Source: Infirmifilum sp. (GTDB lineage: Archaea; Thermoproteota; Thermoprotei; Thermofilales; Thermofilaceae). From it: 64,000 nucleotides of DNA. This document shows, piece after piece, positions 1,347-51,290 of this stretch; position 1 is the stretch's first letter; every line of letters starts with the position of its first letter. Below the pieces are notes generated by a model. It saw nothing but the letters and a program-made list of their open reading frames with translations, did no database searches and was not told the DNA's origin. The translations under genes were made by a program, and so were the position numbers. The stretch lies in assembly GCA_041287245.1 (NCBI GenBank), contig JBEULP010000003.1, positions 96,001-160,000 of the forward strand, given 5' to 3'.

Positions 1347-1925
1347 ATGAGCAATATTGAGGTTAAAGATTCGGATGTTAAAGTCCCGGGGGATGTTCTC
1401 GGCGTTGAAGAAGAGTATCTTCCTGGGGGCGGAGTCTTCGTGGAGCAGGGTTATCTTAAGGCTAAGGTTTTAGGCAGGCCCTATGTTGATCCTATTCATC
1501 ATATCCTAGAAGTTAAGGCGGTTAAGGCTACTGTCTTGCCGCTGTCACCTCGGGATGTCGTATATGCCAGTGTCGAGTTTATACGCGATCCCGTTGTCCA
1601 TGTTAAGATTTTCTATGTTGAAAACAAAAACGTTGTTTTGGGACAGCCGGTATCTGGAGTGTTGACTTCATCAAACATTTCCACCTCACGTGTAAAAAAT
1701 CTTTATGAGGTCGTAGGATACGGCGATGTTCTTCGAGCATACGTCGCTGAGCCAGGAGGCCCGCCATACCTGTTAGCAATTAAGGGCAGGGATTTTGGGG
1801 TTATACTGGCACGGTGCCCCAAGTGTCTTAGCCCTATGCGGCTGCGTGGTTTAAGGCTTGTCTGCCCGGCGTGTGGCAGTAAAAGCAAGAGGAAGATCAG
1901 CAGCAGATATCTTTTAAGGCGGTAG
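1347..1925 (+). CDS. csl4: exosome RNA-binding subunit Csl4
   Basis: VPGDVLGVEEEY N-domain, S1 domain GDVLRAYV, C-terminal CPKC/CPAC zinc ribbon, RKISSRY. Confidence 0.9.
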   Translation: MSNIEVKDSDVKVPGDVLGVEEEYLPGGGVFVEQGYLKAKVLGRPYVDPIHHILEVKAVKATVLPLSPRDVVYASVEFIRDPVVHVKIFYVENKNVVLGQPVSGVLTSSNISTSRVKNLYEVVGYGDVLRAYVAEPGGPPYLLAIKGRDFGVILARCPKCLSPMRLRGLRLVCPACGSKSKRKISSRYLLRR

Positions 1926-5554: not shown

Positions 5555-5665
5555 GGGCCCGTAGCGCAGGCAGGAAGCGCGGCGGCCACGCATCGTTTGC
5601 GCCGCAGTTCTAGGACCAGGCTCGAGGAGAGCCGCAGGTCCCGGGTTCAAATCCCGGCGGGCCCG
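5555..5665 (+). tRNA. tRNA-Arg(UCU) with two introns (32/33 at 5588-5607; 37/38 at 5613-5629)
   Basis: GGGCCCG/CGGGCCC acceptor stem, G73, GCGGC/GCCGC anticodon stem, GTTCAAATC T-loop; removing both BHB-flanked introns gives loop CT-TCT-AA. Confidence 0.92.
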
Positions 5666-48294: not shown

Positions 48295-48381
48295 GCCGGG
48301 GTGGCCGAGCGGCCCAAGGCGACGGATTGCTAATCCGTTACCCGAAAGGGTACCCGGGTTCAAATCCCGGCCCCGGCGCCA
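48295..48381 (+). tRNA. tRNA-Ser(GCU), encoded CCA
   Basis: GCCGGGG acceptor, ACGGA-TTGCTAA-TCCGT, long variable arm, G73-CCA. Confidence 0.93.
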
Positions 48382-48462
48382 TTCTATCTTTTTATATCTC
48401 CATAAAGCATGGATGTTATGCGAGCGTCTTTCTCATGAGTTAAGCGAAGAGGTTTAGAAGTA

Positions 48463-48602
48463 CTGCACCCGAGCCTTTTGAACCACCGTTGGAGACTGCA
48501 GCATATTGCTGCAGTTACCTCCGGGTTATGAGCCCGGCGGGATGCCTGGCTTCCCCACCCCGCTCCTGGTAGCGGGGGGTGGACTTTCAGGCCCGGGTGC
48601 AG
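48463..48602 (-). tRNA. circularly permuted initiator tRNA-Met(CAU) precursor with 47/48 intron
   Basis: 3' half (nt 60-73, 48583-48570) precedes 5' half (AGCGGGG..., 48564-48477); 13-bp leader/trailer helix forms a BHB at 59/60; 28-nt BHB intron 48489-48516. Confidence 0.92.
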
Positions 48603-48815
48603 CAAGTAGATATATAGCAAGCCTGATTTAAGCGTTACGCATCGGAATGTTGTTTGGTGCCCCCTCCCATCTGCCTCCTTTCGGAGGTGTTCCGGTCATA
48701 GAGGGCGCTTTTTAGTTTTGTTTTTCACTATTTGAATCTTTTGGAATCATAGATTAATATGGTTTCGTAGGAATGAAAAGTTTTAAACGGGGTAGACCTT
48801 TTTGTTCTGACAAGT

Positions 48816-51290
48816 ATGAGTGACAAGAAGACGAAGTTGATTCTCTGGTTTGAAGAGCTTACTAAAGAGGATGTACCAATCGTCGGTGGTAAGAACGCAA
48901 ACCTGGGCGAGATGCTTAGGGCTGGTATACCAGTTCCGCCTGGCTTTGCTGTCACCGCGTATGCATATAAGCGATTCATAGAGGAAACCGGGATTAGAGA
49001 TAAAATCTATGAGATTCTCCGCAAGCATGTTCCTACAGGCGCCGGTAAGCCTGAGGACTACATGGAGGCTTCTCAGGAGATTAGGAAACTCATAGAAAGT
49101 GTTTCAATGCCTAGGGATATTGAGGAGGAGATTAAGAAGGCTTACCGCGAGCTTAGTAGGCGCGTGGGTAAGAATGAGGAATTTGTAGCTGTCCGCAGTA
49201 GTGCCACCGCCGAAGATCTTCCTGATGCTAGCTTTGCGGGGCAGCAGGAAACCTACCTGAACGTGAAAGGTGAGGCTGATGTTATCGAGAAGGTGAGGAA
49301 GTGTTGGTCCAGTCTCTTTACTCCGCGTGCTATCTTCTATAGGGAGAGCAAAGGGTTTGAGCATGAAAAGGTCTTGATTAGCGTAGCCGTCCAGAAAATG
49401 GTTAATTCTAGGAGCGCTGGCGTCATGTTTACTCTTCACCCCGTGACGGGGGATAGGGACAAGATTGTCATAGAGGGGCATTGGGGTCTCGGCGAGGCTG
49501 TGGTCAGTGGAAAGGTTACACCCGACGAATGGGTTGTGGACAAGAAGACTATGCAAATAATAGAGAGGAATATTGTTGAGAAGACTGTTGAGCTCATAAG
49601 AGACCCGAAGACGGGTAGGACAATAGAGCATGAGATAGAGCCTGAAAGGCGTACCAAACCCTCGCTTACCGACGAGGAGGTTCTCAGGCTTGCCGAATTA
49701 GCCATTAAGATCGAACAGCATTACGGTAGGCCTATGGATATTGAGTGGGCTGTTGATCGCGACCTCAAGTTCCCTGAAAGTGTTTTTATAGTCCAGGCTA
49801 GGCCTGAGACCGTTTGGAGTACTAGGAAAGAGGGAGGTGGTGAATCTGTGTCTGTAAAAAGCGTATCAGAGGCTAAAGCTGTTGTAAAGGGATTAGCAGC
49901 TAGTCCGGGCGTTGCATATGGAAGAGCTAAGATTTGCCTGTCGCTCGAGGACGCGAAGACCAAAATGCAGCAGGGGGACATTTTAGTGACGAAAATGACC
50001 GATCCGGACTGGGTTCCTTACATGAAGATGGCAGCAGCCATAGTGACTGACGAGGGTGGCATGACTGCCCATGCCGCCATTGTAAGCCGTGAGCTGGGCA
50101 TACCGGCAATCGTTGGAACCAGGGAGGCGACGAAGGTCATGGTTGATGGCAAGGACTATACTGTAGATGCCAGGACAGGCGTGGTCTACGAGGGCAAGGT
50201 TGAGGAATTACTGGGTGGGAAGAAGGAGGAGAAGGCTGCCGCGGCCGCTCCGATAGAGATAATTTGGAAGCCTATTACCGGCACTAAAATCTATATGAAC
50301 CTGGGAGTGCCCGAGAAAATAAAGGAGTATAAGGATCTTCCATTTGACGGCATCGGGCTTATGCGTGTTGAGTTTATCATGGCCAGCTATGTAGGGGAAC
50401 ACCCGCTTTACCTGCTTGAGAGCGGTAGGGGAGATGTACTTGTCAACAAGATGGCTGAGGGTATAGCACTCGTTGCGCGTGAAATCTACCCGCGCCCCGT
50501 CGTCGTACGTTTTTCTGATTTCAAGACAAATGAGTACAGGCAGCTTAAAGGCGGCGAGAAATACGAGCCACAAGAGGACAACCCAATGCTAGGTTGGAGG
50601 GGCGTTAGCAGGTACATTAGTCCTCAATACGAGAAGGCCTTCAGACTGGAGGTCAAGGCAATAAAGAAGGTAAGAGAGGAGATGGGTCTCGGCAACGTCT
50701 GGGTAATGGCGCCGTTTGTTAGGACGCTTTGGGAAGCTGAAAAGTTTATCAAACTACTGGCTGAAGAGGGGTTAGAGAGTAGCAAGGACTTTAAGATATG
50801 GGCAATGGCTGAGGTACCGAGCATTATATTTCTCGCTGAAGAGTTTGCACGCTACTTTGACGGGTACTCTATTGGAAGCAACGACCTGACACAGCTAACC
50901 CTTGGAACAGACAGGGACTCGGCTATACTGCCTAAGATTGACCCGAGATATTTCGATGAGAGAGACCCCGCGGTGCGCACCGCAATAGCCATGCTCATTG
51001 AAAAAGCCCACAACTCCCCATACGGCTACAGAACGGTATCAATCTGCGGACAGGCTCCGAGCGTTTATCCAGAGTTTTCGGAGTTCCTCGTAAGGCAAGG
51101 TATAGATAGTATCAGCGTTAACCCCGACGTAGTTGTTCGAACCAGGGAACTTGTCGCACAGATTGAACACAAAATACTCCTGGAAAAGGCGCTCGGAATC
51201 GAGAAGATTGAAGAGGACCTAGGCTGGCCTATGCGGCGTGAAAGAAGAGGACTCCCGAGAATTGCTAGGCGTGTAGACGAGATAGAATAA
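48816..51290 (+). CDS. ppsA: phosphoenolpyruvate synthase
   Basis: VGGKNANLGE, RSSATAEDLPDASFAGQQET, TAHAAIVSRE, EDNPMLGWRG. Confidence 0.96.
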   Translation: MSDKKTKLILWFEELTKEDVPIVGGKNANLGEMLRAGIPVPPGFAVTAYAYKRFIEETGIRDKIYEILRKHVPTGAGKPEDYMEASQEIRKLIESVSMPRDIEEEIKKAYRELSRRVGKNEEFVAVRSSATAEDLPDASFAGQQETYLNVKGEADVIEKVRKCWSSLFTPRAIFYRESKGFEHEKVLISVAVQKMVNSRSAGVMFTLHPVTGDRDKIVIEGHWGLGEAVVSGKVTPDEWVVDKKTMQIIERNIVEKTVELIRDPKTGRTIEHEIEPERRTKPSLTDEEVLRLAELAIKIEQHYGRPMDIEWAVDRDLKFPESVFIVQARPETVWSTRKEGGGESVSVKSVSEAKAVVKGLAASPGVAYGRAKICLSLEDAKTKMQQGDILVTKMTDPDWVPYMKMAAAIVTDEGGMTAHAAIVSRELGIPAIVGTREATKVMVDGKDYTVDARTGVVYEGKVEELLGGKKEEKAAAAAPIEIIWKPITGTKIYMNLGVPEKIKEYKDLPFDGIGLMRVEFIMASYVGEHPLYLLESGRGDVLVNKMAEGIALVAREIYPRPVVVRFSDFKTNEYRQLKGGEKYEPQEDNPMLGWRGVSRYISPQYEKAFRLEVKAIKKVREEMGLGNVWVMAPFVRTLWEAEKFIKLLAEEGLESSKDFKIWAMAEVPSIIFLAEEFARYFDGYSIGSNDLTQLTLGTDRDSAILPKIDPRYFDERDPAVRTAIAMLIEKAHNSPYGYRTVSICGQAPSVYPEFSEFLVRQGIDSISVNPDVVVRTRELVAQIEHKILLEKALGIEKIEEDLGWPMRRERRGLPRIARRVDEIE

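Follow-up and report, generated by a model that had tools for sequence, protein, structure and literature searches.

A circularly permuted initiator tRNA-Met gene with a 47/48 intron in Infirmifilum and its relatives in Thermofilales

A circularly permuted gene for initiator tRNA-Met (iMet, anticodon CAT) was identified at positions 48463-48602, minus strand, in a window of 64,000 nucleotides from the hot-spring archaeon Infirmifilum sp. (the window being the whole stretch of DNA analysed). The order of the tRNA is reversed in the gene, the last 17 bases preceding the first 60 on the same strand, with the permutation junction at 59/60 and a 28-nt intron at 47/48. The locus is almost certainly a functional permuted iMet gene, and the best explanation of the whole, which we consider probable, is that one transcript would be spliced twice through a circle. 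The 47/48 splice site is only 12 nt from the permutation junction, and a permuted tRNA gene would in this way tolerate a second splice site close to the first.

Structure of the permuted gene and its two BHB motifs

An earlier note on this DNA had laid out the pieces of the gene on the minus strand, and each of its boundaries was borne out base for base (Table 1). Two elements were refined: the linker CCAGG does start with CCA, and was resolved into an encoded CCA (nt 74-76) and a 2-nt spacer; the leader and trailer do pair, and their outer helix proved longer than described, with 15 pairs between 48604-48590 and 48475-48461. The spacer ranged from 2 to 25 nt in orthologues, and the exact 14-mer of the nt 60-73 piece occurred once in the genome.

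Table 1. Features of the permuted iMet gene and its surroundings (window positions unless a contig is given)
Feature	Position	Strand	Remarks
Predicted archaeal promoter, BRE + TATA	48626-48639	-	At -75 relative to mature nt 1; precedes the 3' piece
Leader, 5'	48604-48584	-	Outer-helix arm 48604-48590 (15 nt), TGAA strand 48589-48586, two bulge bases
3' piece, nt 60-73	48583-48570	-	3' strands of T stem and acceptor stem, discriminator A73
Encoded CCA, nt 74-76	48569-48567	-	Read from the sequence
Spacer, 2 nt	48566-48565	-	Between CCA and mature nt 1; read from the sequence
5' piece, exon 1, nt 1-47	48564-48517	-	A1, D arm, anticodon arm, variable region to nt 47
CAT anticodon	48530-48528	-	Anticodon stem with three G-C pairs
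Intron at 47/48, 28 nt	48516-48489	-	9-bp hairpin and CTCC strand of the central helix
5' piece, exon 2, nt 48-59	48488-48477	-	5' strand of T stem, T loop up to nt 59
Trailer, 3'	48476-48461	-	One bulge base and 15-nt arm pairing with the leader
tRNA-Ser(GCT) gene	48295-48381	+	Convergent neighbour
PEP synthase gene	48816-51290	+	Divergent neighbour
GC-rich hairpin	48657-48709	-	About 50 nt; candidate small RNA
Linear tRNA-Tyr(GTA) gene	G000:C105:12325-12457		Same genome; Tyr loci compared, L191-L207

At the 59/60 junction, TTCA of the T loop paired with TGAA of the leader (4/4 pairs, two 3-nt bulges), and this central helix was located between the T stem and the 15-bp leader/trailer helix. 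At the 47/48 junction, GGAG (nt 42-45) paired with CTCC of the intron, again in 4/4 pairs with two 3-nt bulges, and was flanked by the 9-bp intron hairpin and 2 outer pairs. Both motifs had been proposed from these TGAA/TTCA and GGAG/CTCC strands, and both were found complete. Eight intron registers were tried, and the full 4/4 central helix with flanking helices was obtained only at 47/48, as proposed; the 4-bp helix between two 3-nt bulges, together with the conserved tRNA that excision restores, is that of an archaeal BHB intron. In several permuted orthologous loci the central helix was imperfect, so relaxed BHB motifs are apparently tolerated.

In the free fold of the precursor at 37 °C both central helices were absent, and the intron appeared as a hairpin in the place of a long variable arm, the cloverleaf being intact. 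Forcing both helices cost 2.5 kcal/mol at 37 °C and 0.9 kcal/mol at 80 °C, and the 47/48 helix arose unforced at 80 °C. The 37 °C fold would suit a different fate of the RNA, in which the permutation is processed and the 28-nt insert is retained as a long variable arm or is cut at register 46/47, the latter yielding a variable region that is also seen in some relatives. Such a fate is very improbable. Register 46/47 gave 3/4 central pairs and no flanking helix, compared with 4/4 pairs and flanking helices of 2 and 9 pairs at 47/48, and initiator tRNAs have short variable loops. Moreover, the one other genome found to have a 47/48 intron, the distant relative G022, keeps the geometry through a compensatory change. 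In G022 the exon strand is CGAG and the intron strand CTCG, and because both sides of the central helix are changed, the comparison provided good evidence that the 47/48 motif is under selection; the ends common to the two introns are partly forced by the BHB itself. Excision at 47/48 remains the preferred reading.

The 44 linear tRNA genes of the same genome served to train a matrix, under which the predicted promoter scored 9.3 bits; this score is reached by 0.05% of genome 14-mers, and no better site was present within 200 nt. The linear genes had their promoters at -25 to -60, compared with -75 for the permuted gene, and a BRE + TATA motif was likewise present upstream of the orthologue in G003. 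A scan for sigma-70 promoters and intrinsic terminators, with models not applicable to archaeal signals, found nothing, and no clear T-rich terminator was seen at the gene.

The gene is flanked by a convergent tRNA-Ser(GCT) gene and a divergent PEP synthase gene (Table 1), and the latter neighbour was also kept in G005, G006 and G007. The nearby hairpin is rich in GC and capped by a GNRA loop; tandem GA motifs resembling a kink-turn were seen in it by eye. It is a candidate small RNA for which no significant Rfam match was found. A sequence resembling it adjoins the iMet gene in G005, G007 and G010, and the orientation of the iMet gene relative to the hairpin is inverted in G005 and G007; at E 0.05 it was matched in 4 of the 41 genomes, the match in G019 being marginal and away from the iMet gene of that genome. 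A 78-aa ORF overlapping the gene (48384-48620) was rejected, since the length of the tRNA part spans all three frames across 13 orthologues. Six more intron-bearing tRNA genes, with first bases at 5555, 15666, 28282, 29250, 38496 and 63297, lie in the window and were overlooked by default ARAGORN.

Identity, function and conservation of the gene

A genome-wide scan for the 59/60 permuted geometry gave one permuted match in the 1.81-Mb assembly, which was this locus, and none in the reversed genome, in agreement with the permutation proposed earlier. The 148-nt precursor folded at -90.1 kcal/mol, compared with -57.6 ± 4.1 kcal/mol (best -70.7) in 200 dinucleotide shuffles. When joined in silico, the pieces formed a 77-nt canonical cloverleaf that was called tRNA-Met(cat) by ARAGORN; a single one of the 77 positions differed from the G003 orthologue, which has no intron. 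Reversed order, junction BHB, canonical cloverleaf and promoter upstream of the 3' piece were all found in silico, which is the description of a type IV (59/60) permuted gene. DNA contigs from 3 public runs spanned the gene with no listed difference inside it, these runs coming from one study that is possibly the source of the assembly and being not independent of it. As had been foreseen, standard scans overlooked the gene: ARAGORN and Rfam at gathering score both missed it, Rfam giving only a sub-threshold partial match (E 0.19), and an essential gene was recovered in this way.

The anticodon CAT, the A1-U72 pair and the three consecutive G-C pairs closing the anticodon stem, which we take to be features of archaeal initiator tRNA-Met, were all present and upheld the proposed initiator identity. 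A1-U72 is not diagnostic alone, being present in both tRNA-Gln genes as well. The other two CAT genes of the genome, C49:111666 and C61:12456, start with G1-C72 and look like elongator Met and Ile2, their isotypes having been read by eye. In the assembly, a draft of 119 contigs with 5% contamination, neither a second initiator core nor a linear iMet gene was found; a second iMet gene could sit outside it. The tRNA set comprised 46 genes: 44 were linear with the T arm intact, one (Asn) carried a 59/60 intron, and one was the permuted iMet gene. The initiator filled the sole slot otherwise empty (anticodons read by eye). The published number of tRNA genes in Thermofilum pendens is also 46 (PMC3218864). 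Near-identical introns were common to different tRNA genes of the Infirmifilum genome (three Gly, two Arg and two Leu), as expected from intron transposition.

The leader and trailer of the permuted gene were compared among 27 distinct pairs. The cognate duplexes had a mean of -31.7 kcal/mol, compared with -17.9 ± 6.0 kcal/mol for swapped ones; the own trailer was the best partner in 15 of the 27 loci and ranked 1-4 in all 27, near ties appearing to be close relatives. At 12 loci with an intact central helix, among which kin are not independent, comparison with the Infirmifilum gene gave 110 cells, comprising 59 compensatory, 6 one-sided and 45 unchanged pairs and no broken one. The sequence of leader and trailer varied freely among loci and the pairing was retained. 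These results showed that the leader/trailer stem is under selection.

The locus might instead be a pseudogene or integration scar, the 3' piece being a duplicated attachment site and the working iMet gene lying outside the 119 contigs of the draft; tRNA genes are common integration sites (PMC3218864). This is hardly credible and has been largely refuted already. The permuted layout is shared by 15 of the 41 genomes compared in the order, no pair is broken in the covarying flanking stem, and in the five permuted genomes that are single contigs the 5'-end and 3'-piece patterns were found in at most one gene each. In addition, the 5 scanned protein genes within 9 kb were of housekeeping types, with no integrase among them. 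A functional permuted gene is clearly the better reading.

The intron differed among permuted genes. The 14 whole ones from genomes included 6 without an intron, 4 with an intron at 37/38, 1 at 36/37, 1 at 32/33 and 2 at 47/48, the last two being those of Infirmifilum and G022; among the 24 whole permuted metagenome genes a 47/48 intron was absent from all. The iMet genes of the three nearest relatives on the tree (G005, G006 and G007) have no intron, and the 47/48 intron was therefore most likely acquired recently in the Infirmifilum lineage. No donor was found in the same genome, where the best other match was 13 nt (E 0.36), and therefore transposition from another tRNA gene of this genome is unsupported. 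The 44 linear tRNA genes contained no strict 47/48 intron, and candidate introns at 45/46 or 46/47 were present in about 8 of them. A variable-loop intron of T. pendens tRNA is reportedly the subject, by its title, of one study. In openly readable papers no 47/48 intron in a permuted gene was found.

Proposed processing of the precursor

Given a functional permuted gene, it is quite probable, by analogy with known permuted genes, that circle formation comes first. A single precursor would be transcribed from the predicted upstream promoter, and tRNA splicing endonuclease and RtcB ligase would cut and rejoin it twice, once to take out the 47/48 intron and once to link nt 59 with nt 60, presumably with the intron first as in Cyanidioschyzon merolae. 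The two splicings would leave a 79-nt circle, whose 6-nt acceptor loop would be opened by RNase P at nt 1, after which the 2-nt spacer would be trimmed to the encoded CCA, or the RNA would be cut after nt 73 and CCA re-added. The assembly contained two endonuclease-domain genes, RtcB, RNase P RNA, a CCA-adding enzyme and a full-length RNase Z-like gene, the last with a score of 221 bits, below the curated cut-off of 293. A partial second match to the CCA-adding enzyme, on a small contig (G000:C31:1741-2616), is possibly part of the 5% contamination.

An order without a circle appears unlikely. RNase P and a 3' nuclease would in that case open the acceptor loop first, and the two base-paired pieces would later be joined like split tRNAs. 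The free fold of the precursor already has acceptor, D, anticodon and T stems, which would allow this, but RNase P recognises the tRNA elbow, which an unspliced T loop should disturb. The circle stage of archaeal permuted precursors was described as unclear in a 2014 review, as was the opening of so tight an acceptor loop (PMC3978253), and an ends-first order gains some room from the former. Against it, the introns and junction of C. merolae are processed ahead of the acceptor loop (PMC3978253). Circular intermediates have been detected for algal permuted tRNAs (PMC3978253), and the permuted SRP RNA of Thermoproteus undergoes endonuclease-dependent circularisation (PMC4731332). In the work of Chan et al., bench verification concerned an Aeropyrum split tRNA only, the archaeal permuted genes being computational (PMC3218864), and no bench test of archaeal permuted tRNA processing was found in the openly readable literature.

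It is highly improbable that splicing takes place between molecules, the leader of one precursor pairing with the trailer of another and the mature tRNA being cut out of linear multimers. The 15-bp leader/trailer helix does resemble the 13-14-bp helices that bring split tRNA halves together in trans (PMC3218864), but here both arms belong to one molecule, whose own fold is much more stable than those of shuffles, so folding in cis should win. Two splicings of one transcript, with the circle formed first, remain the preferred account.

Distribution and history in Thermofilales, and comparison with known systems

Among 41 genomes of the order, 15 had a permuted iMet gene, 14 had a linear one and 11 were drafts in which no iMet gene was found; the remaining genome, G034, contained no more than a truncated 5' part and was not counted. 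Introns of the permuted form occupied five positions in these genomes or were lacking. The permuted genes were found by the tRNA-end-then-start pattern in 13 genomes, to which G001 and G020 were added, the gene of G020 being cut by a contig end and its leader being the same as in locus L111. In a sample of the phylum, the permuted pattern matched 9 of the 12 family members and none of the 388 other genomes, a negative that means not found rather than absent, the pattern being sequence-specific. The 28 metagenome matches comprised 24 whole genes, 3 chance matches and 1 cut-off gene. Matches in titled records (8 loci) were assigned to Thermofilum, Thermofilaceae, Thermofilales and one unclassified archaeon with a true gene, with two chance bacterial matches.

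Several permuted genes carried further introns. In G001, a 99% complete genome in a single contig, the sole iMet-like gene (L181, about 1440-1580, reverse strand) is permuted, with a 27-nt intron at 32/33 and C1-G72 instead of A1-U72. With four introns (near 14/15, 32/33, 37/38-38/39 and 45/46), L111 would need five splicing events; L108 and L110 carried two introns each.

On a tree of RpoB and EF-2 from 29 genomes, built by FastTree and a quick IQ-TREE run (G010 was without both markers), the permuted genes fell into three groups: the genus of Infirmifilum, a further clade of the same family, and G031, which belongs to a different family. Relatives with linear genes were sister to the first and third groups with SH support of 100, at least three changes were needed, and a single permuted clade was rejected (AU p 4e-61). 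Over the last 12 bases of the leader, G031 matches G007 in 10 (by eye), which favours one origin followed by transfer or reversal over three inventions, with mis-binned draft contigs as a caveat. The neighbours of the G031 iMet gene had only distant matches in the Infirmifilum genome.

Outside the permuted clades, the iMet gene of G035 (L032, 60-210) is linear and has an intron at 59/60. Models of origin by duplication or through a circle need a linear gene with a junction intron as precursor (PMC3978253), and the G035 gene, as far as its sequence goes, resembles that proposed precursor. A perfect 13-bp inverted repeat was observed flanking the whole G035 gene and bringing its ends together. 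In G016 (L059), part of the 5' half of the linear iMet gene recurs in decayed form just downstream of it, an arrangement like that of the tandem-duplication model.

tRNA-Tyr(GTA) was permuted at 59/60 in 9 members of the family and linear in the clade of the Infirmifilum genome, G005, G006 and G007, and the linear genes differ from the permuted ones in acceptor stem and D arm. The linear clade would represent either a reversal or two gains of the permutation. The permuted genes all encoded CCA (iMet 15 of 15, Tyr 9 of 9), compared with 8 of 13 readable linear iMet genes and 7 of the 44 linear tRNA genes of the Infirmifilum genome; kin are not independent here, and the counts give a hint that the encoded CCA may matter for opening the acceptor loop.

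We offer, tentatively and as a reading with slightly less than even odds, that the iMet permutation is an old state which has moved or reverted across Thermofilales. This would account for the three clades, the nested linear relatives, the living precursor in G035, the gain and loss of introns, and the CCA, which would be kept since the tight acceptor loop of the circle needs it. If true, the origin of permuted tRNA genes, their reversal and their opening could be tested in this family as a natural series. The family also eases tests of the questions raised in the 2014 review, namely the circle stage, the removal of a spacer of 1-2 nt and the descent from linear genes with a junction intron.

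In openly readable literature, no archaeal permuted tRNAs beyond the T. pendens pair and no wider distribution were found, and a term search of a preprint on Asgard tRNA introns gave no mention of permuted genes. The non-canonical BHB introns of Thermoproteales and Thermofilum tRNAs resemble the 47/48 intron in having a short hairpin, the hBHBh' motif and a place in the variable region, and 47/48 is not among the positions named in that source, whose list ends in "etc." (PMC4090602). The type IV (59/60) genes of C. merolae, such as tRNA-Arg(CCU) with a 14/15 intron, likewise combine permutation with a non-canonical intron in two separate BHBs (PMC3218864, Table 1; PMC3978253). However, these genes are eukaryotic and unrelated in sequence, their CCA is not encoded, and the circle has been demonstrated there, whereas it is proposed by analogy in Infirmifilum (PMC3978253).

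The closest system is the permuted tRNA-iMet(CAU) gene of T. pendens, published in 2011 by Chan, Cozen and Lowe (PMC3218864), of which the Infirmifilum gene is the orthologue. Both genes are single-copy and of one isotype; in both, a BHB is present at the 59/60 junction, the 3' piece comprises 17 nt including an encoded CCA, and the 5' piece is interrupted by an intron. The one upstream promoter is at -72 in T. pendens (PMC3218864) and -75 in Infirmifilum. T. pendens has a second permuted gene, tRNA-Tyr(GUA) (PMC3218864), whose counterpart in the Infirmifilum genome is linear. The earlier note was right that a permuted iMet gene had been reported in T. pendens, and left out its 37/38 intron; the novelty it implied was overstated, as that gene already combines 59/60 permutation with an intron (PMC3218864). 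To a tRNA specialist the Infirmifilum gene alone would be of little surprise. The intron is 15 nt at the canonical 37/38 in T. pendens and 28 nt at 47/48 in Infirmifilum, and the spacer is 7 nt in the former and 2 nt in the latter (PMC3218864); by this comparison, only the position of the intron and the length of the spacer set the Infirmifilum gene apart.
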